14,650 nucleotides of DNA from a virus. The DNA is taken from UHGV virus genome UHGV-0042153. One strand, written 5' to 3'. Made by a program: the position numbers and the translations under genes. A model generated the notes under the pieces. It saw only the letters and a list, made by a program, of their open reading frames with translations, searched no databases and was not told where the DNA came from. Of the stretch, positions 2,765 to 14,650 are shown piece by piece (position 1 is the stretch's first letter; each line of letters opens with the position of its first letter).

Positions 2765-3208
2765 ATGGCTCAGGCTGCCATTTTTAAAGAAATATTCGAT
2801 CAAGTGCGTAAAGATTTAAACTGTGAATTATTTTATTCTGAGCTAAAACGTCACAATATCTCACTTTATATTTACTATTTAGCCACAGATAATATTCACA
2901 TTGTGTTAGNNNNNNNNNNAGATAATATTCACATTGTGTTAGAAAACGACAACATAGTGTTAGTAAAAGGACTCAAAAAGGTTGTAAATGTTAAATTCTC
3001 CAGAAACAAACATCTTATAGAGACCTCCTATAATAAGTTGAAATCAAAAGAAATCACATTTCAACAATACAGGGAAAATCTTGCTAAAGCAGGAGTTTTC
3101 CGATGGGTTACAAATATCCAGGAACACCAAAGATATTACTATGCCTTTGATAACTCATTACTATTTACTGAAAGCATCCAGAAAACTACACAGATCTTAC
3201 CACGCTAA
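2765..3208 (+). CDS. ydfO: YdfO-like (DUF1398) prophage protein; reading frame passes through a 10-N gap
   Basis: Track ORF 2750..3208; I prefer ATG 2765 ([11 protein letters not shown]..., GGAAGG upstream). The gap plus a 23-bp duplicated flank adds 33 nt in frame (DNIHIVL-XXXX-DNIHIVL). Confidence 0.65.
2887..2942. repeat. Identical 23-bp sequence (AGATAATATTCACATTGTGTTAG) on both sides of the first N run
   Basis: Direct reading; typical of an unmerged contig overlap or an assembly break in a tandem repeat. Confidence 0.8.
2910..2919. other. Assembly or masking gap (10 N)
   Basis: Run of n characters. Confidence 0.95.
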
Positions 3209-3999: not shown

Positions 4000-4206
4000 C
4001 TTCATTTTCACTTTTTTAAATCCAACGACAGACGGCTGGCATTTAAGTATTGTGAAATATTATCAAATGTAATCATCATTGATTTACAAAAGATACATTT
4101 TGCCCCGAAAGGATTCATGTCAGAAACATCAAAAGATGATGTTCTATACTGGGAACCATGACAACACGGGCATCTAAAGTGAATATGGTTTGTAATATTG
4201 TCTACC

Positions 4207-4419
4207 TCAAAGCGCCACTACATGAACAGCGGCAGGACCTTTAGGTCCGTTCTCAATACCAAATTCAACTTCCTGATTCTCAGTTAATGTTTTGAAATCG
4301 TTGCTCTGAATTGCTGAGAAATGGACAAACACATCTTTGCTGCCATCTTTCGGCGTGATGAAACCAAAACCTTTTTCAGGGTTAAACCATTTCACTAAAC
4401 CAGTCATTTTGTTAGACAT
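4207..4419 (-). CDS. cspI: Cold-shock protein, CspA family
   Basis: 70 aa; RNP1 KGFGFI and RNP2 VFVHF motifs; sequence matches CspI as I recall it. Confidence 0.9.
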
Positions 4420-4782
4420 AATTATTACCTTTTGAAGAAATTAGCCCTTGGGCAGAATGGTCCGAAAAAAAATATCAGAGAGAAAAACCAACAAGGAAAT
4501 CTCAAGAGGTACAAATAATAAAATTATAACAATGACTGCTTCAGATAAATTTGTAACAAACCAGAACACCATTAACGCATGATTAACCACCCATAGCAAG
4601 GATTACTTTTGTAAAGAAAAACACAGCAATGAAAGAATAGCTTTATTTATTAATAATAACGTGTCATTCTGATTAAGACCTTTTATCTTACCCTTAAGAT
4701 TTCAGGAATTTTGGCTCATGGAAGAGTCCTTTTTATTTAAATTTTACATTCCGCGATGTAAATGTTCCGATTTAATATTACC

Positions 4783-5806
<1,024 letters not shown>

Positions 5807-5810
<4 letters not shown>

Positions 5811-6118
5811 ATATATTTATGATGAGGACGCTCGTGCTTATTGGCAGGATTTTCAATCTTAAAGGAGTACTGATGCTGCAGATAAGACTCAACTTTTTCT
5901 GACAATTTTTCTGCTACTTCCAGGAAGACTTGCCGGACGCTCCTTCTGGCTGCTGCCTCATAAAACTCCAGCGCAGCTCCTTCAACACGGTCCATGGCGA
6001 CATCCAGGTCAAAAATTTCACCGTCAAAGCGTTTTTTGTCCCGTAACGCTAAAGTTACCGTAACTTTATTCTCAAAATTGCGGATCCCTTTCACAATCAG
6101 TTCATAGTTTTGAGTCAT
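5807..6118 (-). CDS. ydfR: YdfR-like (DUF1327) protein between holin and endolysin
   Basis: 103 aa, GGAGAG RBS; position matches ydfR in Qin. Confidence 0.7.
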
Positions 6119-6122
6119 TGAA

Positions 6123-6338
6123 TTACTCTCCTCTCGCAGCCTTACGCCTGTCTTCTTTAATCTTGAAATAAAGATTTGTCAGATACGTCAGCAGGCCAAA
6201 AACCAGGCTACCCAGCACACCGATTGCAGCCCACTGTGACGGAGTTACTTTATCGAGTAACTGCAATGCCCAGAAACCAGCATTACCCGCCGATGTGCCA
6301 TAGGCAACACCTGTTGTTAACTTATCCATTGATTTCAT
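6123..6338 (-). CDS. essQ: Class II pinholin (phage 21 S-like) with dual-start motif
   Basis: Track ORF trimmed to [10 protein letters not shown]... (71 aa); Met1 and Met4 dual start, two transmembrane segments, basic C-terminus [11 protein letters not shown]. Confidence 0.85.
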
Positions 6339-6557
6339 ATCCTCACCCCGATGTACACGGATGGTGCAATATGTTTGAAAAGATCGGAGTCTACGGGGTA
6401 GTTTTGACAGCACACGTTGTTCTCAACGGCGCTAAAAAAACATACACATTAAAAATGTGGGTAATTATTTTGAAAGAAAATCATATATAAAATAATAATA
6501 CGAGAAATGTTTTCATATTTAGTGTACTGTATACGGCCATTTATACAGGAAAAGCCT

Positions 6558-6728
6558 ATGTCAGAACGTAAAGACTCAAAATCACGCCGTAATTATCTCG
6601 TTAAATGCTCCTGCCCAAACTGCACCCAAGAGTCAGAACACAGTTTTTCAAGAGTACAAAAAGGTGCCCTTTTGATCTGCCCTCATTGCAACAAAATATT
6701 CCAGACAAATCTTAAAGCTGTAGCCTGA
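6558..6728 (+). CDS. Small zinc-ribbon protein (56 aa), possibly YnfU-like
   Basis: Internal ATG of track ORF 6507..6728 with AGGA RBS; two Cys pairs, CSCPNC and CPHC, about 20 residues apart. Confidence 0.5.
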   Translation: MSERKDSKSRRNYLVKCSCPNCTQESEHSFSRVQKGALLICPHCNKIFQTNLKAVA

Positions 6729-6784
6729 TTGATTTTATTAGTAACAAGTATTTTTTATATTTTAATAATATATTTAAAGCAGAT

Positions 6785-6809
6785 AATAAAAAACCCGCCT
6801 GAGCGGGTT
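6785..6809 (-). terminator. Intrinsic terminator (minus-oriented)
   Basis: AACCCGC-CTGA-GCGGGTT hairpin followed by a U-run on the minus strand. Confidence 0.5.
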
Positions 6810-7090
6810 TGAGATTGTGGTGCTTTTTGTGGGAGTCATCCACTTACGCACTTTGTTTTGCCATGCCAGCAGTTAGCTTCTGCTGTAAAACTATTCATGC
6901 AGCAAACCTGCACTTCACCACAATGGTTAGCATACTTTTCCTGATTAAGGTTTTGCCAAATATGCTGGCCATTGTTTCATGTATTGGACCTCCTTATTTT
7001 TATTAAAGAGATCCAATATTCACTACTCTGTCCGTATCTCTACTCAGGCATCAGCCTTCTTCGTTATCGTATACAGACGAGCGATGAATT

Positions 7091-7306
7091 TTAATCAGTA
7101 ATGATGACATTTGCTGCTGCAGGACCTTTAGCACCACTCTCTATAGAGAAGGTAACCTTTTGACCTTCAAATAAGGTTCGATAATTATCATTCTGAATCG
7201 CAGAAAAATGCACAAACACATCTTTACTACCATCAACAGGAGAAATAAAGCCGAAACCTTTATCAGCGTTAAACCATTTTACTAAACCAGTCATTTTATT
7301 TGACAT
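7091..7306 (-). CDS. cspB: Cold-shock protein, CspA family
   Basis: 71 aa; KGFGFI and VFVHF motifs; matches CspB as I recall it. Confidence 0.9.
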
Positions 7307-7606
7307 TCTACATTCCTTAACTTGAGCCTTTCGGCATAAATGGTTTGCATAACAGAAACGACTTCGTACTTAATTGGAGAGACTCAAAGAAGGAATAAGT
7401 GAATAACACCTGAAATGAGAACTGCTTTAGTAAACTACTTCGTATATCGTCTGTTCTTCAAACCGACGCAATCATTAACGCATAGTTGAACATATGAAGC
7501 AATGTTTATTTTAGACATCCAGCCATCTTCAACCCCATCAAAAAACTATAGCTTTCTTCAGGAACGTGTGTATAGTGCGCCAAGTTATCAGTATTAAGGA
7601 ATTTTT

Positions 7607-7819
7607 TTGTCCCGTAAAATGACAGGAATTGTCAAAACCTTTGACGGCAAAAGCGGCAAGGGTCTTATCACCCCATCCGATGGTCGTATCGATGTCCAGC
7701 TTCATGTTTCAGCGCTCAATCTCCGCGATGCAGAAGAAATTACCACCGGATTACGCGTGGAATTTTGCCGGATAAATGGTCTGCGTGGCCCTTCAGCTGC
7801 CAATGTTTACCTTTCATGA
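7607..7819 (+). CDS. cspF: Divergent cold-shock-domain paralog (CspF/CspH type)
   Basis: 70 aa beginning [10 protein letters not shown]; TTG start at 7607 with AAGGA 6 nt upstream; the aromatic RNP1/RNP2 residues are replaced ([16 protein letters not shown]). Confidence 0.8.
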
Positions 7820-7873
7820 GCTATATTAAAGCTTTAATTTCAGGCCCCATCGGATCACACATGGAGAGTTTTT

Positions 7874-7963
7874 ATGAATAACCCCGTCTGTCTTGATGAC
7901 TGGATGATTGGCTTTAAAAGCTTATGCTGTACTTTGGCCGTAATAGCTCTGCTAATAATATAA
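7874..7963 (+). CDS. Candidate 29-aa hydrophobic peptide
   Basis: ATG with GGAGAG upstream; [29 protein letters not shown]. No other support. Confidence 0.2.
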
Positions 7964-8112
7964 TAAGCAGACTCATTGTGTTTAGGGACATTGTACTGGA
8001 AGAAAACATTTTAAACATCAGGCAAATAACCAAGTCACCAGCTAAATAATAAGTTAACAGACATGAGTCCCGGGATGAGATTCAACATTACCATTGCCCC
8101 ATTTAAAGCACA

Positions 8113-8147
8113 AAACCCGCTCATCAGCGGGTTTTCTACTTTTTCTT
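8113..8147. terminator. Intrinsic terminator, usable in both orientations (cspF terminator and candidate tR')
   Basis: AACCCGC-TCATCA-GCGGGTT hairpin with a T-run on the plus strand and a shorter U-run on the minus strand. Confidence 0.5.
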
Positions 8148-8180
8148 AACGTCGGGTATACAAAGCCCATCGTTGAAAAA

Positions 8181-8209
8181 ATTTTATCCATATTTTTTGA
8201 AAAATGCAA
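8181..8209 (-). promoter_or_regulatory. Candidate late promoter (PR'-like) just downstream of quuQ
   Basis: Minus-strand TTGCAT, 17-bp spacer, TAAAAT; predicted start about 65 nt upstream of the hairpin at 8114-8133. Confidence 0.35.
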
Positions 8210-8240
8210 ACATCATGTCGCCATCTTCAGCAAAAATCAT

Positions 8241-8993
8241 TTATCTCGTCACCTTCCTCAATTGCGCTTCCGCGTATGCTTCTTCCTGCCAGCACTTTGT
8301 TACCAGTTTACCAATGACGTCCGCATACCCCTTATACCACTGATAATCGGTCAGGTCTGGTACCAGCTTCTGGACATGACGTCGTGCCAGCGTGGTCGGT
8401 AAACGACTAAACCGGTTTCCATTACAACGCCCACAAATCTTATATACCGGTACGCCATGAAACCGGGTTCTTTTTTCATCCAGAACAATCCCTTTACCCT
8501 TACACCCTCTGCACGCTGTGCTGACTTCGCCCTTACCATGGCAATGCTGACATAGTTCCTTCACCCATTCTTCCTTGATTACAGATTCCCCGCGTCTGTA
8601 GTGTTTCACCACTTCGCGCAATACATTATAAAATCCCGTACCTGAACAATGCTCACAGCGAGCCTTACTTGCCGCAGACCTGGAGTAATCAGCAAAGGCA
8701 AAACTCACGAGGTAAGGAATAATCTGTAACCGGATTTCTTCACTCAATTTGTTCAATGTCGGGTTATCCAGTGCCATCGCGTAATTTAGCAGGCCTTCAA
8801 TCGCAAACTGAGGGTCCTGAACACCAACTTTTGCCAGAAATAAGGCCAACCCAAGTGGTGCTTTCGACTGCACCATCCCCTGCGCTGCCATTACATCCGT
8901 AATTGTTAAACAACCGGTGCCTGTCGCTGGAGCGTCATCGCTCAATTTTGGAGATTTTGGGGAGTAATATTTTGGTAAGGCTTCAAGGTTCAT
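8241..8993 (-). CDS. quuQ: Late-gene antiterminator Q, lambda type
   Basis: Track ORF trimmed to ATG 8993 (GGAG upstream); strong resemblance to lambda Q (YSPKSP...TDVMAA...FAFADYSRSAA...CxxC zinc-finger pairs). Confidence 0.85.
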   Translation of the reverse strand: MNLEALPKYYSPKSPKLSDDAPATGTGCLTITDVMAAQGMVQSKAPLGLALFLAKVGVQDPQFAIEGLLNYAMALDNPTLNKLSEEIRLQIIPYLVSFAFADYSRSAASKARCEHCSGTGFYNVLREVVKHYRRGESVIKEEWVKELCQHCHGKGEVSTACRGCKGKGIVLDEKRTRFHGVPVYKICGRCNGNRFSRLPTTLARRHVQKLVPDLTDYQWYKGYADVIGKLVTKCWQEEAYAEAQLRKVTR

Positions 8994-9006
8994 GCTCGTT
9001 CTCCAC

Positions 9007-10095
9007 TTACGCCAGTACGCCAATTGCCAGCGCGCGATCGATAAAACGAAATATCAGCTCCAGTTGGGAGCCATACTTCTCTTCAAATGCCACTGTATCC
9101 GTATGCAGCTCGTTGTGATGCTTTCTGCACAAAGGCAACACAAAGAGATCATGTGCTTTTGTTCCCATTCCGCCCTGCCCGTGACCAATCAGATGATGCG
9201 GATCGTCGGCTGGCATACCGCAGCAAGCACACGGCTGTGTCTTAACCCAACGTGTGTATTTCTCCTTAACCCAGCGGCGACGTTTAGGCAGCTTCATGAA
9301 AGATTCCGGAGACTCTGGATCAACGGTGATGCTTACCACCGTCTTTTCCTGTGGTGGTTTTTGTTGCTGGTAGGCGTAAGGCAACGGTGCAAGATTTTTT
9401 GTGCGTTGTTTCAATATGCTGGTGGCGGTCTGCTCTCCCGGTACGATGTCGCTTTCGCGGTACACCGAGCAGATTTTTTCCGCTGGTAATCCCAGCGAAC
9501 GACGCGATACAGCCTCAGGTAGTGCATCCACCACCTGATTGCAGACCGCCCACCAGGATAATTCAGCCAAAGATAATTCCCGCTCCTGCGTACCGCTTAT
9601 TGCGTGACGGATGACGTCAATCACCCATGCTGTCAGATTTTGTTGAGCAAGCAGATCCAGTGATTCCGATGTCTGGTCACGCAGTTGGTTGTCGCAGTGC
9701 CAACACAACACCATTGCGCCGGTACCATAACGGTGAATGACTGTTTCAGAGTGATGGTAATCGCCATTAGGCCACTGGCAGGATGTAACATGACGTAATA
9801 GCCAGTCAGACAATGCGCCAACGCCGCCAGCAGCACGAATCACCCGTTCGTTACTAAAAAACGGCAGCAATGTTTTGTCTTCCACCAGCGGCTGGCGAAC
9901 GGCAGGAACGACTCCGGATGGCAGATTACGCATGCTTTTTGGTTCCGGTTCCACCAGCACTCGAGGATTATGAAATATCTGTATGGATTCACGGCCCGGC
10001 TTAAGGACCACCAGCCCAAGCTCAGGCACCAGAACAGGTCTAAGTAATACCCGCACGTTACCTCCAGATCCGTTGCTGGAAAGTGCGGGACGCAC
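9007..10095 (-). CDS. ydfU: DUF968-type nin-region protein with C-terminal HNH-like Cys/His cluster
   Basis: 362 aa, GTG start; motif QPCACCG...DDPHHLIGHG...CRKHHNELH; position between rem and Q as in Qin. Exact start uncertain. Confidence 0.8.
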   Translation of the reverse strand: MRPALSSNGSGGNVRVLLRPVLVPELGLVVLKPGRESIQIFHNPRVLVEPEPKSMRNLPSGVVPAVRQPLVEDKTLLPFFSNERVIRAAGGVGALSDWLLRHVTSCQWPNGDYHHSETVIHRYGTGAMVLCWHCDNQLRDQTSESLDLLAQQNLTAWVIDVIRHAISGTQERELSLAELSWWAVCNQVVDALPEAVSRRSLGLPAEKICSVYRESDIVPGEQTATSILKQRTKNLAPLPYAYQQQKPPQEKTVVSITVDPESPESFMKLPKRRRWVKEKYTRWVKTQPCACCGMPADDPHHLIGHGQGGMGTKAHDLFVLPLCRKHHNELHTDTVAFEEKYGSQLELIFRFIDRALAIGVLA

Positions 10096-10812: not shown

Positions 10813-10822
10813 NNNNNNNNNN
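10813..10822. other. Assembly or masking gap (10 N)
   Basis: Run of n characters. Confidence 0.95.
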
Positions 10823-10999
10823 TTTGAAATACAGGTTAGTCAGATATGTCAGGAAGCCCAGAACCAGACTCCCCAGTACACCAATCGCAGCCCACTGTGA
10901 CGGACTGACCTGATCAAGCCACTGTAAAAACCAGTAGCCAGCACTGCCTGCGGAGGTGCCGTAGGCAATGCCCGTTGAAATTTTATCCATGGATTTCAT
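10823..10999 (-). CDS. Second S21-like pinholin, truncated at its 3' end by gap 2
   Basis: [59 protein letters not shown] then N run; GGAGGTGAGG RBS; the track ORF's N-terminal extension (GTG 11098) is not credible. Confidence 0.7.
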
Positions 11000-11136
11000 A
11001 GCCTCACCTCCGCAGCGAACGGATGGCGTAGTTATAAGGGGAGCGAAAAAGAAAGAATGCGCGATTGCGCAATATGGTAACGTCAGGGTATTATCCACTG
11101 GCTGAATAGATCACTTCACGTTTTTTGTTCCTTGCC

Positions 11137-11164
11137 GCCCGTATCCATATGCGGGCTTTTTTTT
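11137..11164 (+). terminator. Intrinsic terminator (plus-oriented)
   Basis: 8-bp stem GCCCGTAT/ATATGCGGGC with 4-nt loop followed by eight T. Confidence 0.45.
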
Positions 11165-11170
11165 GCATGT

Positions 11171-11200
11171 AAAAAGGCCCCAACACATGTGCGTGGGGCC
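11171..11200 (-). terminator. Intrinsic terminator (minus-oriented) between the tRNAs and the holin
   Basis: GGCCCCA/TGGGGCC stem followed by a U-run on the minus strand. Confidence 0.45.
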
Positions 11201-11440
11201 TGAGAGTATACATGGTTTCAGTCAACTGCATGGTGCCGGGTGCCTCCCGGTGAATTCAGTACCAGCACCTGAATCCGCGATTATCCCATATACCTACTCG
11301 CTGATTGCCCCTCCGCACAGGGGGATTCACCATGCCAGTTTCTTTTAACAAACTCCCCGCAAAACAGACAACTGTCAACCGTCTGAATTGTGAGACATTT
11401 AAAAAAAAGGCCCGCAAAAGCGAGCCGGGAAAAATAAGTC

Positions 11441-11517
11441 TGGCGCGTTGTACTGGATTCGAACCAGTGACCGATTGCTTAGAAGGCAATTGCTCTGTCC
11501 GGTTGAGCTAACAACGC
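11441..11517 (-). tRNA. tRNA-Arg, anticodon TCT
   Basis: Manual fold: 7-bp acceptor stem GCGTTGT/ACAACGC, D-arm GCTC...GAGC, anticodon loop CTTCTAA, T-loop GGTTCGAATCC, encoded CCA. Confidence 0.85.
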
Positions 11518-11530
11518 AGGGTACAGATAA

Positions 11531-11607
11531 TGGACCGCCATCGAGGACTCGACCCCCGCGCAACCAGCTTCGAAGGCTGGTGCTCTATCCTGATGAGCTA
11601 ATGGCGG
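11531..11607 (-). tRNA. tRNA-Arg, anticodon TCG
   Basis: Manual fold: acceptor CCGCCAT/ATGGCGG, perfect anticodon stem CCAGC/GCTGG with loop CTTCGAA, encoded CCA. 5' end could be offset by 1 nt. Confidence 0.75.
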
Positions 11608-11614
11608 TATGTGA

Positions 11615-11690
11615 TGGTGGCCCTTGCTGGATTTGAACCAGCGACCTGGCGATTATGAGTCGCTCGCTCTCACCTCTGAGCTAAAGGGCC
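11615..11690 (-). tRNA. tRNA with anticodon CAT, ileX-like (tRNA-Ile2 type)
   Basis: Acceptor GGCCCTT/AAGGGCC; anticodon loop CTCATAA; closely resembles E. coli ileX as I recall it. Ile versus Met cannot be settled from the fold alone. Confidence 0.8.
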
Positions 11691-11810
11691 GGGCGCAGGA
11701 TAATAACGTTACGAAATCAATGTTGCAAGCATTCAAAAATCACCTGGTTAAAAATCACCCTTAGCTCCTCCACCAGCGCATTCACCATGTCTATCCGAGA
11801 TAAGTGGCAC

Positions 11811-11848
11811 AAAAAAACCCGCTTGTGGGCGGGTTTTGTTTGCTTTTG
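11811..11848. terminator. Intrinsic terminator usable in both orientations (candidate tR' for the second Q module)
   Basis: AACCCGC-TTGTG-GCGGGTT hairpin flanked by an A-run and a T-run. Confidence 0.5.
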
Positions 11849-11888
11849 CCATCACGTACAAAATCGGCAAAATATCAGATTTGCATGA

Positions 11889-11917
11889 AATATATGCCTT
11901 TCAATCTACTTTTGCAA
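11889..11917 (-). promoter_or_regulatory. Candidate late promoter (PR'-like) overlapping the 3' end of the second Q-like gene
   Basis: Minus-strand TTGCAA, 17-bp spacer, TATATT; predicted start about 65 nt upstream of the terminator at 11811-11835. Confidence 0.35.
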
Positions 11918-12590
11918 CACTTTGCTTTGAAAATGCCGCCTTTTGTTTTGAACGTGTTCTCATTACAAACAATAAAGCCTCACTATCCAGTCGTTGAAAA
12001 ATGTGTTTCATTGCAACCCAGTGACGAGTAAATGTTTTGGACCAGTTTTTAGTTGTCACTCCCGCCAGTAATGCCAGCTCCTGGTATTCATAACCTTCCC
12101 CACCAAAAAGTTCTGCTTTTACTGCCTGCGCCGCCAGCCAGATTAATTTTTTCAGGCGTTCCTGCGTTTTCCCTGCAATTTTTCTGGTACCGGATTGAGT
12201 ATTAAATTCATTCCACGCCCACTGTGTTATCGCGATCTGATATTCCCAACAAATACTCTCGCCGTAACACCACAACAACCAGGCTTTATGATGCTCTTCA
12301 AGAGACAGCAAAGCCCGCCGCCATGATGATGTCGAAAACTCAACCGGGCTGACCAGGGCAATTGATGAGCCATTCGCCAGTGATTGTTTTCCCGGGATTG
12401 GTGGATTATCCCGCGTTATCATTTTTCCAGTCACTTCATCGCGGTACCGGATTTTTTTTCGCCTGTAACGCCCTGTATCGAACATGGCATTCTCCTGCCA
12501 GGCTTCAAGCTGACCTTTTGTTGCCCCACTCAAATCAGCGGTGGCGATAATGAGCTGCTCACGCACAAACTGTAAATACTGGTTATTCAT
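11901..12590 (-). CDS. Putative second late antiterminator (Q-like by position); family not recognised
   Basis: 229 aa from ATG 12590 (GGAG upstream, ATGA overlap with rusA stop); sits between RusA and a promoter/terminator/tRNA/holin arrangement. No similarity to lambda Q visible by eye. Confidence 0.5.
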   Translation of the reverse strand: MNNQYLQFVREQLIIATADLSGATKGQLEAWQENAMFDTGRYRRKKIRYRDEVTGKMITRDNPPIPGKQSLANGSSIALVSPVEFSTSSWRRALLSLEEHHKAWLLWCYGESICWEYQIAITQWAWNEFNTQSGTRKIAGKTQERLKKLIWLAAQAVKAELFGGEGYEYQELALLAGVTTKNWSKTFTRHWVAMKHIFQRLDSEALLFVMRTRSKQKAAFSKQSVAKVD

Positions 12591-12946
12591 GCGCACTCCA
12601 GTTCTGTGATTTTTATCCCCAGCCGCCCACCAGGAACGAGCTGACCGCGCACAATATTGATTTCATCAAACTGCTCGTCGTCTATGAGAAGTCCGGCATG
12701 CGTCAGCGCATCCAGTGGTGCTTTCAGGATATTGTCCAGGTCACGACGGCGCTTATCCGGTGGCTCTGCAATAATTTTTATTGCCAGCCGTCCGGACAGG
12801 CTTAATTTCAGCCGCTGCTGGCGAACAATAAGCGCCACAGCCCGGCGATAACGCTTTCCCTCCTCCGAGATAAAATATGTGCTGCCACGGCGTCGCCAGT
12901 AAGTGTTCACCGTCGGCGGGTAAGGTAAAACCAAATCTATGAGCAT
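12587..12946 (-). CDS. rusA: RusA-family Holliday junction resolvase
   Basis: 119 aa; PDKRRRDLDN and LDDEQ acidic motifs typical of RusA; AGAGGTGA RBS. Confidence 0.85.
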   Translation of the reverse strand: MLIDLVLPYPPTVNTYWRRRGSTYFISEEGKRYRRAVALIVRQQRLKLSLSGRLAIKIIAEPPDKRRRDLDNILKAPLDALTHAGLLIDDEQFDEINIVRGQLVPGGRLGIKITELECA

Positions 12947-12958
12947 CAGTCACCTCTT

Positions 12959-14080
12959 TTACCCGAGCACGCCAGTTGCAAAGGCGTGATCAAGAAAACG
13001 AAAAATTAAATCAACCTGAGAACCATGCTTTTCTTCGAACGCCAGAGGATCCGCATGAAGCTCGTTGTGATGCTCCCGACACAGCGGTAGCGTGAAAATA
13101 TCGTGAGATTTTGTCCCCATTCCGCCCTGACCATGACCAATCAGGTGATGGGGATCGTCGGCTGGCTTACCACAACACGCACACGGCTGTGTCTTCACCC
13201 AGCGTGTGTATTTCTCGTTAACCCAGCGGCGACGTTTAGGTCGTTTCATGAAAGATTCCGGAGACTCAGGATCAACGGCAATGCTGACCACCGTCTTTTC
13301 CTGTGGTGGGTTCTGTTGCTGGTGGGCGTGAGGCAGCGGCGCAAGATTTTTTGTGCGCTGTTTCAGTATGCTGGTGGCGGTCTGCTCTCCCGGTACGATG
13401 TCGCTTTCACGGTACATTGAGCGGATTTTTTCCGCACGCAACCCCAGCGAACGACGTAATACCGCTTCCGGTAGCGCGTCCGCCACCTGATTGCGGACCG
13501 CCCACCAGGATAATTCAGCCAGAGATAATTCACGCTCCTGCGTACCGCTTATTGCGTGACCGATGACGTCAATCATCCATGCTGACAGGTTTTGATGAGC
13601 AAGTTGCTCGAGTGATTCGGATGTCTGGTCACGCAACTGGTTGTCGCAGTGCCAGCACAACACCATTGCGCCGGTACCATAACGGTGAATGACGGTTTCA
13701 CTGTGGTGATAATCACCGTGTGGCCACTGGCAGGATTTAATATGGCGCAACAGCCAGTCAGACAGTGCACCAGCGCCGCCAGCAGCACGAATCACACGCT
13801 CATTGCTGAAAAATGGCAGTAATGATTTATCCTCCGCCAGCGGCTGGCGAACGGCAGGAACGACCCCGGACGGCAGATTACGCATGCTTTTCGGTTCAGG
13901 CTCCACCAGCACTCGAGGGTTATGAAATACTTGCATGGATTCACAGCCCGGCCTAAGGACCACAAGCCCGAGTTCCGGTACCAGAACAGGTCGAAGTAAT
14001 ATCCGCACGTTACCTCCAGATCCGTTGCTGGTATGTGCGGGATGGGCGCGGTGGGCGTTCGGAATAAGGGAGCCTGACAT
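12959..14080 (-). CDS. DUF968-type protein, second copy (paralog of 9007..10095)
   Basis: 373 aa; same HNH-like motif (QPCACCGKPADDPHHLIGHG...CREHHNELH); most positions identical to copy 1 with scattered substitutions. Confidence 0.8.
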   Translation of the reverse strand: MSGSLIPNAHRAHPAHTSNGSGGNVRILLRPVLVPELGLVVLRPGCESMQVFHNPRVLVEPEPKSMRNLPSGVVPAVRQPLAEDKSLLPFFSNERVIRAAGGAGALSDWLLRHIKSCQWPHGDYHHSETVIHRYGTGAMVLCWHCDNQLRDQTSESLEQLAHQNLSAWMIDVIGHAISGTQERELSLAELSWWAVRNQVADALPEAVLRRSLGLRAEKIRSMYRESDIVPGEQTATSILKQRTKNLAPLPHAHQQQNPPQEKTVVSIAVDPESPESFMKRPKRRRWVNEKYTRWVKTQPCACCGKPADDPHHLIGHGQGGMGTKSHDIFTLPLCREHHNELHADPLAFEEKHGSQVDLIFRFLDHAFATGVLG

Positions 14081-14391: not shown

Positions 14392-14401
14392 NNNNNNNNN
14401 N
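14392..14401. other. Assembly or masking gap (10 N)
   Basis: Run of n characters. Confidence 0.95.
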
Positions 14402-14437
14402 GATGCACTCACTGGCGGTCACTGAACAACGGGTCTC

Positions 14438-14593
14438 TTACTCCTCATGTTCGTAAGCTGTGAAGACAGCGGCCTCCGTCTGGCCGGTTCGGATTCGTAC
14501 CCCCCAGAGGTCTTTCCTCGTTACCAGTGCCGTCACAATGACGGTTAAACAGATGACGATCAGGGCGATTAACATCGCCTTTTGCTGCTTCAT
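14438..14593 (-). CDS. Hok/Gef-family type I toxin (51 aa), HokD/RelF-like
   Basis: Internal ATG of track ORF 14438..14650 with GGAG RBS: MKQQKAMLIALIVICLTVIVTALVTRKDL...; single transmembrane helix; an overlapping upstream frame (mok-like) starts at the window edge. Confidence 0.8.
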   Translation of the reverse strand: MKQQKAMLIALIVICLTVIVTALVTRKDLWGVRIRTGQTEAAVFTAYEHEE

Positions 14594-14650
14594 AGCCTGC
14601 TTCTCCTTGCCTTTCGGCACGTAAGAGGCTAACCTACATGTGTCTAGCAT

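Follow-up and report, generated by a model that had tools for sequence, protein, structure and literature searches.

An STnc100-type small-RNA gene at a toxin-free Shiga-toxin insertion site, identified by homology in an Escherichia coli prophage

Comparison with related phages identifies the 442-bp interval between the tRNA cluster and the holin gene of an Escherichia coli lambdoid prophage (10999-11440) as the known Shiga-toxin insertion site minus the toxin, a hotspot for cargo. By its match to an RNA family model, the gene at 11165-11364 within this interval is STnc100, a known phage small-RNA gene. The window analysed here is UHGV virus genome UHGV-0042153, 14,650 nucleotides of one strand, in which the late genes of the phage lie on the minus strand. 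We hold with considerable confidence that the interval is the minimal, cargo-free leader of a lambdoid late operon, made up of small self-contained units strung between the late promoter PR' and the holin gene. The identity of the parts, their positions and the breakpoints between them were observed directly and are described below, followed by a model of how they might work together.

Results

Candidate late promoter, tRNA cluster and holin

An earlier note on this DNA had sketched a backbone of a Q-like gene, a late promoter, Ile/Arg/Arg tRNAs and a holin, with about 440 bp between the last two. PF06323, a promoter scan, ARAGORN with Rfam, and PF04971 bear out that order, the promoter being a candidate, and the length is also close to that measured here. 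The late-gene antiterminator Q (minus strand, 11901-12596) matches PF06323, which represents the Q82 family (PMC9388147), over its full length (217 of 220 profile positions, E 2.3e-91), and is followed by promoter-like and terminator-like sites. On identical DNA, RefSeq labels the equivalent of 11901-12590 as antitermination protein Q. The late promoter of lambdoid phages lies just past the Q stop codon. Here the candidate PR' (TTGCAA-N17-TATATT, minus strand, 11889-11917) is sigma-70-like, with its -35 element at 11917-11912 and its -10 element at 11894-11889, and it straddles and then passes the stop codon of Q. A leader transcript of ~75 nt is predicted from PR' to a candidate tR' terminator (minus strand, 11807-11837), a hairpin followed by U7 from a T-run, and the 76-nt PR'-tR' leader folds at -24.3 kcal/mol (z = -3.3). 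The scan listed the tR' hairpin on the plus strand as well, and Rfam gave weak sub-threshold matches only (isrK, isrJ) in the tR' region.

Further along the minus strand, a candidate promoter of the tRNA cluster (TTGCAA-N17-TATTAT, 11700-11728) sits within a module, 11755-11400, that is 92% identical to Stx2 phages. Three tRNA genes follow it on the same strand: tRNA-Ile2 with anticodon CAT, of ileZ type (11615-11690; ARAGORN, and 70.6 bits with the Rfam tRNA model), tRNA-Arg (TCG), of argN type (11531-11607), and tRNA-Arg (TCT), of argO type (11441-11517), the two latter identified by ARAGORN, Rfam and the Sakai annotation. The order CAT, TCG, TCT is that of the ileZ-argN-argO cluster, and the DNA is 92% identical to that of Sp5 and WGPS6. 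The CAT tRNA is called Met by ARAGORN, as against tRNA-Ile (ileZ) in RefSeq and in the Sakai record. The cluster closes with an intrinsic terminator (minus strand, 11401-11426), a stem of seven pairs at 11426-11409 followed by T8, which folds at -14 kcal/mol (z = -4.1).

The class II holin gene (P21 S-like; PF04971, E 1e-30) starts at 10998 on the minus strand, and the window holds its 5' part (10823-10998), the ORF being broken after ~58 codons by a run of N. Three runs of exactly 10 N occur in the window (2910-2919, 10813-10822 and 14392-14401); that the second of them falls inside the holin gene had been overlooked in the earlier note. In complete genomes with identical DNA, a full 71-aa holin gene is followed by ydfR, lysozyme and Rz. 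Strain MS 85-1 matches both sides of 10813-10822 at 100% identity, and there the two flanks lie ~520 kb apart and in opposite orientation, so an assembly join interrupts the holin, with two unlinked contigs connected there through 10 N. A prophage end beyond 10813-10822 was rejected: what lies there is the sequence of another prophage across the assembly gap, the DNA left of the gap being a separate, Qin-like prophage.

Match to the STnc100 small-RNA family

A permissive Rfam scan of 10824-12000, followed by a rescan of the whole window, returned RF02076 (STnc100, the EcOnc05/EcOnc27/sRNA103 type) on the minus strand at 11165-11364. The score was 140.2 bits against a gathering score of 47 (E 1.3e-32), the alignment covered model positions 1-206 of 206, and the match recurred in the whole-window scan. 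The 3' hairpin of the gene is the minus-strand terminator of the interval (11200-11171, followed by U5). STnc100 occupies the same position in all seven annotated relatives, always 3' of the cargo, and both in these seven and in 120 IMG/VR contigs it lies in the lambdoid late region downstream of the moron site. Across 31 distinct IMG/VR homologues, RNAalifold reproduced the Rfam helices with 33 pairs, four of which carry compensatory double changes; one pair is A-U in 15 sequences and G-C in 14.

A candidate convergent unit on the plus strand

Facing STnc100 on the plus strand is a candidate antisense sRNA of the EcOnc08 type (~11100-11164), suggested by its terminator, its fold and an Hfq peak on its Sp4 counterpart. 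The terminator consists of a stem at 11137-11156 followed by T8, and the 66-nt unit folds at -22.7 kcal/mol (z = -5.2). Upstream of it, a candidate promoter found as an exact pattern match (TTGCGC-N18-TATTAT, plus strand, 11065-11094) aligns with the TTGCGC ... TAAAAT upstream of AsxR in Sp5; the 5' end of AsxR has been mapped (PMC4104026). Furthermore, the Hfq-CRAC peak EcOnc08 spans the homologous 73 nt of Sakai Sp4 and begins within ~5 nt of the predicted start. STnc100 and this unit together explain the convergent terminators that the earlier note had placed at 11137-11200: both terminators are present, one on each strand, but they are not alone in the interval, as each closes a unit, one a full-length STnc100 match and the other a candidate promoter-terminator unit on the opposite strand.

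In Sp5, the matching position belongs to AsxR itself (88 bits with Rfam), which lies on the strand opposite STnc100 and meets that gene at its 3' end. The scan found no AsxR beside the STnc100 of phage WGPS6, so an antisense partner is not universal. Among 107 IMG/VR loci, 22 carry an EcOnc08-type unit together with its promoter and 66 have neither known antisense type; the variant seen in the window is rare, being found in one of the 22, and differs in its 5' region and terminator stem.

AsxR and AgvB (RF02703, RF02702; Tree et al. 2014) resemble the unit in position, orientation and promoter context, and, like the RNA predicted here, each is short and is closed by an intrinsic terminator that adjoins STnc100 back to back. 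Members of this anti-sRNA class sequester a core-genome sRNA and are 51-60 nt long, antisense to the late operon and convergent with the sense sRNA at the moron site. The unit agrees with the class in where it lies, in orientation, in promoter alignment and in terminator, at a predicted length of ~65 nt. Membership of the Rfam AsxR/AgvB families was nevertheless rejected. In a focused permissive scan the AgvB model reached 11.9 bits at 11103-11163 (plus strand) against a threshold of 56, and the AsxR model gave no match at E up to 10. The ~42-nt 3' region conserved among AsxR, AgvB and EcOnc03 is missing from the unit, both motifs of the AsxR/AgvB sequence (GTATCTCATGC...TTGCCCGAACCCA...) being absent and TTCCTTGCCGCCCG standing there instead.

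A serious competing view, to which we give roughly a third of our belief, is that 11100-11164 is not an sRNA gene but the terminator of antisense transcripts originating further downstream, of which the ~271-nt EcOnc08/21 RNA of Sakai would be an example, and that it survives as a relic in the window, where the region upstream is missing. The Sakai northern probe overlies the predicted promoter, 5' of the start predicted for the unit, and the RNA that it detects measures ~271 nt rather than ~65 nt, so a longer antisense transcript does exist in Sakai; the failure of both Rfam models to recognise the unit points the same way. However, the promoter aligns with that of an RNA whose 5' end is mapped, EcOnc08 is a separate 73-nt Hfq peak with a start close to the one predicted, and unit and promoter are kept together in those 22 loci. 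We regard a ~65-nt plus-strand RNA from the window as probable. It is a more speculative proposal, and one less likely than not, that the unit is functional and represents a second, uncharacterised family (EcOnc08 type) of phage anti-sRNAs or cis-antisense RNAs, which might act as a sponge for a different host sRNA or might base-pair with the leader of the late operon immediately 5' of the holin and so damp leaky expression of the lysis genes.

Mosaic joints and their cargo

Two joints at which related phages carry additional genes were located in the interval. The first lies at 11397-11400, where the BLAST breakpoints of seven loci fall (11400 and 11397-11405). Homology to Stx2 phages covers 11755-11400 at 92%, stops there and restarts at 11397, and between the two the phage has 1333 nt that hold stx2A and stx2B. 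In one IMG/VR contig, Q, the PR' region and the tRNAs are 96% identical to the window over 12650-11400, and stx2AB (1332 nt) sits exactly at the joint. Of 5426 complete E. coli genomes, 187 contain an unbroken match to a 111-nt probe across the joint; the half-matches of this probe break at query positions 52-56, which correspond to 11400-11404 of the window. Other relatives fill the same place differently, strain G1/2 with TerB and DUF3927 and strain E2348/69 with a ~620-nt segment that has a DUF3927 ORF. Among 120 IMG/VR contigs picked by an STnc100 core motif, 31 had nothing in this first slot, ~25 had TerB, 18 a segment of the E2348/69 type and five stx2AB.

The second joint (11057-11061) separates the sRNA pair from the holin gene. 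Homology to Sakai Sp4, E2855 and G1/2 stops at 11059 and restarts only within the holin, and the cargo that relatives carry between these points is IraM, a SASA esterase, DUF1378/DUF826 or two lipoproteins with a TolA-C domain. Of 52 contigs in which a holin is visible, only one has this slot empty, so that the holin follows the sRNAs directly, the arrangement of the window.

Both slots are vacant in the window, which is not itself a Stx-converting phage, as it has no corresponding ORF and its BLAST alignments with Stx2 phages pass over the 1.33-kb stx cassette. The earlier note had proposed a toxin-less relative of Stx phages or a cargo-insertion hotspot, to be sought by BLAST against Stx phages for a break in homology and by inspecting the same interval in related prophages for cargo. 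Both searches gave positive results and both proposals hold: the break falls at the first joint with stx2AB in the gap, and the occupants of the two joints include genes quite other than the toxin. It had also regarded the slot as empty, while naming a conserved small gene that it might have missed as what would speak against this. STnc100, present in every relative examined, is such a gene, and the slot is vacant of cargo only.

The vacancy could have arisen secondarily, by loss of cargo from an ancestor that carried stx, TerB or the esterase, rather than reflecting an ancestral cargo-free backbone. Zhu et al. argue that stx linkage is often lost in chromosomal prophages, and the rarity of an empty second slot in the sampled contigs also favours a deletion. 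Neither joint retains any remnant of stx, TerB or esterase, however, and a clean first joint is shared with the 187 complete genomes and with Sakai Sp4, so we regard secondary deletion as the less likely history, though a credible one.

Comparison with known loci

Pairs of convergent sRNAs have been described at the moron site, which lies 3' of PR', in Sakai Sp3, 4, 5, 9, 10, 11, 15 and 17 (Tree et al. 2014, PMC4104026). Of these, Sp4 (ileZ1-argN1-argO1, EcOnc05, EcOnc08/21) gives one contiguous 88% match to window 11693-11059, and has in common with it the three tRNAs, their terminator, an uninterrupted first joint, STnc100 (as EcOnc05) and the antisense unit (as EcOnc08). Sp4 differs in having another Q, extra genes between Q and the tRNAs and a SASA esterase that separates the holin from the sRNA pair, and the body of its antisense unit is 6 nt longer, with a different terminator stem.

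Stx2 phages (Sp5/933W type, Stx2a_WGPS6) share the tRNA module 11755-11400 at 92% identity, as well as STnc100 and, further 3', a class II holin; in Sp5, AsxR also abuts STnc100. Unlike the window, they carry stx2AB (~1.33 kb) between the tRNA terminator and STnc100 and ~3 kb (esterase, DUF1378, DUF826) before the holin, and most have a different Q type. Their STnc100 is only ~70-84% identical to that of the window.

The closest matches are exact. Escherichia phage PhiR49_2 (PV340570) is 100% identical from argO to the holin and has nothing in either slot, but its Q differs and a methylase fragment precedes the tRNAs. Complete genomes (for example WP5-S17-ESBL-10 and MS 85-1) are also 100% identical from argO to the holin, and in them the holin-ydfR-lysozyme-Rz cassette is intact. 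Meanwhile, PasD1 and PasD2 of the EPEC strain E2348/69 reportedly have structure and origin in common with STnc100, with esterase and holin genes as neighbours; at the corresponding position the E2348/69 locus matches STnc100.

Expression of STnc100

Two Sakai orthologues of STnc100 were detected by Hfq cross-linking and on northern blots, EcOnc27 of the Stx2 phage Sp5 at ~235/247 nt and EcOnc05 of Sp4 at ~222 nt (PMC4104026 supplement). In EDL933 the gene is named sRNA103 (PMC12711010), and it has been placed 75 nt 3' of stx2B (PMC12370729). Effects of STnc100 on fimZ and espA come from an overexpression study, as cited in PMC12711010, and STnc_100 has been seen in vesicles by RT-qPCR. The northern probes for both orthologues map onto the RNA of the window; that for EcOnc05 has the very sequence of window 11272-11306, and the STnc_100 qPCR primers in the literature also match the window exactly. 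By analogy with EcOnc05 and EcOnc27, the gene in the window is a candidate for an expressed and Hfq-associated RNA.

Because the Sakai RNA is ~222 nt on northerns, the 5' end of STnc100 is probably near 11389-11397, upstream of the start of the Rfam model and close to the first joint. This upstream region holds a conserved 5' hairpin (CAGAC...GTCTG). The consensus promoter scan yielded no convincing sigma-70 promoter for STnc100. A TTGACA at 11378-11373 was rejected as its -35 element, as no usable -10 follows at 16-19 nt and the 5' end indicated by the northern sizes lies upstream; the motif is within the loop of the 5' hairpin, where relatives replace an A-U pair by G-U. Since the sequence 5' of the inferred start is not the same in the empty forms as in those that carry stx, and since the scan gave no promoter, STnc100 may arise by processing of read-through transcripts and not as a primary transcript.

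The result of the promoter scan, together with the fact that STnc100 is without an established function, could be taken to mean that the interval is a non-functional spacer in which two terminators insulate the tRNAs from the lysis genes, the Rfam match being conserved but unexpressed phage DNA. This is very improbable: the Sakai orthologues, 88% (Sp4) and 70% (Sp5) identical, are Hfq-bound and visible on northerns, the RT-qPCR signal in vesicles was obtained with the exactly matching primers, and the helices are kept by compensatory base changes.

Open reading frames

Ten ORFs of at least 20 aa overlap the interval. None of the five tested has a Pfam or NCBIfam match, and in five homologous loci (Sp4, G1/2, Sp5, E2348/69, WGPS6) the interval ORFs meet stop codons and differ in length by non-multiples of three. 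Protein-coding cargo was rejected on both counts, in line with the earlier impression that the interval has no credible ORF. Two CDS features annotated here are best read as annotation artefacts, a PGAP pseudo-CDS (plus strand, 11187-11345) that overlies the sRNA gene and a 46-aa CDS of PhiR49_2 equivalent to 11091-11231 (minus strand) that spans both terminator hairpins. Although two annotation pipelines have put such features here, that either the 46-aa ORF or the pseudogene fragment marks an overlooked small protein is scarcely credible, given the missing domains, the broken frames, the coverage of both hairpins by the 46-aa ORF and a pattern of variation that tracks RNA pairing and not codon structure.

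Discussion

The cargo-free leader described here can be placed in a model whose read-through logic is drawn from established lambda and Stx-phage Q biology; we infer that the units are transcribed in this strain and where their exact 5' ends lie. In a lysogen without Q, polymerase leaving PR' would halt at tR' after ~75 nt, and the tRNA cluster would be read from its own promoter to its own terminator at 11426-11401. STnc100, a minus-strand RNA of ~200-230 nt closed by the 11200-11171 hairpin, would build up as an Hfq-binding regulator, and the opposite-strand RNA of ~65 nt would end at the 11137-11164 terminator, back to back with it. Together the terminators would hold the holin silent. On induction, Q-modified polymerase would pass all of them and reach the holin and the lysis genes.

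The boundaries of these units may also serve as points of module exchange among lambdoid phages. The joint between the tRNA terminator and the 5' end of STnc100 (11397-11400) takes stx2AB or TerB/DUF3927 in relatives, and the joint near 11059 takes esterase, IraM or TolA-like genes.

The arrangement is an ordinary one that has already been described. Tree et al. (2014) set out the architecture, the RNA family is on record, and the exact sequence is present in complete genomes and in PhiR49_2, so the finding was already known.

The locus shows, at base resolution, where Shiga toxin and other accessory genes enter the late operon of lambdoid phages, and that the conserved neighbours of the entry point are regulatory RNAs and not spacer. 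It is of use in annotation, two pipelines having laid spurious CDS features over sRNA genes. Variation 3' of stx2 has been associated with clinical outcome (PMC12711010), and the locus also bears on how that variation is to be read.

The STnc100 5' end and flanking annotation

The 5' end of STnc100, as inferred from the sizes of its orthologues on northern blots of Escherichia coli O157:H7 Sakai, falls on the cargo joint, at 11385-11400. Upstream of this end lies the T-run of the tRNA terminator in the empty form, whereas in the stx form it is the 3' flank of stx2B. STnc100 RNA may be transcribed from its own promoter or, alternatively, may be cut out of read-through transcripts.

Two coding features have been annotated over the genes for STnc100 and the candidate antisense sRNA: a pseudo 'hypothetical protein' on the plus strand (11187-11345) in the public PGAP annotation and a 46-aa CDS on the minus strand (11091-11231) in the annotation of PhiR49_2, a phage identical to the window from argO to the holin gene. 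Neither frame is conserved in relatives, and both features therefore look like annotation artefacts. Against Rfam, the ~75-nt PR'-tR' leader (11808-11885, minus strand) resembled isrK and isrJ only weakly, scoring below threshold at 22-25 bits; the equivalent leader of Stx phages is the source of the sRNA StxS.

Relatives with the same Q carry different tRNA sets at the tRNA position, namely Ile-Lys-Arg, Thr-Arg-Gly and Asn-Gly (phage PPompW_132418, L008, at 4446-6228; IMG/VR contigs L098 and L124). In PPompW_132418 an ISEc20 element directly follows the first joint, the site of cargo in relatives, and the phage is without the sRNA and lysis genes.

Assembly and the second Q-to-holin interval

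The window contains three runs of exactly 10 Ns. The DNA on one side of the middle run (10813-10822) comes from a different prophage than that on the other, and in the closest complete genome the two prophages are separated by ~520 kb; the window is thus a scaffold join. The run at 2910-2919 stands in place of 21 nt of E. coli MS 85-1, and a colinear match to L001, a relative's sequence, runs across the one at 14392-14401. Such breaks were probably caused by inter-prophage repeats such as the DUF968/YdfU paralogues, one in each prophage (9007-10095 and 12959-14080, both minus strand), which share 85% DNA identity. A hokD-like sequence lies at 14430-14650.

Rfam cspA thermoregulator matches were found on the minus strand for the prophage cold-shock genes cspB (7075-7467, 158.8 bits) and cspI (4180-4565, 112.8 bits). 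The Qin-like prophage has another Q-to-holin interval (6124-8994, minus strand), in which cspF, cspB and ynfU form the cargo between ydfT, a Q-lambda-family antiterminator gene (PF03589, ~8242-8994), and the essD holin gene (~6124-6339). This interval, which has neither tRNAs nor STnc100, is a filled counterpart of the empty, toxin-less slot.
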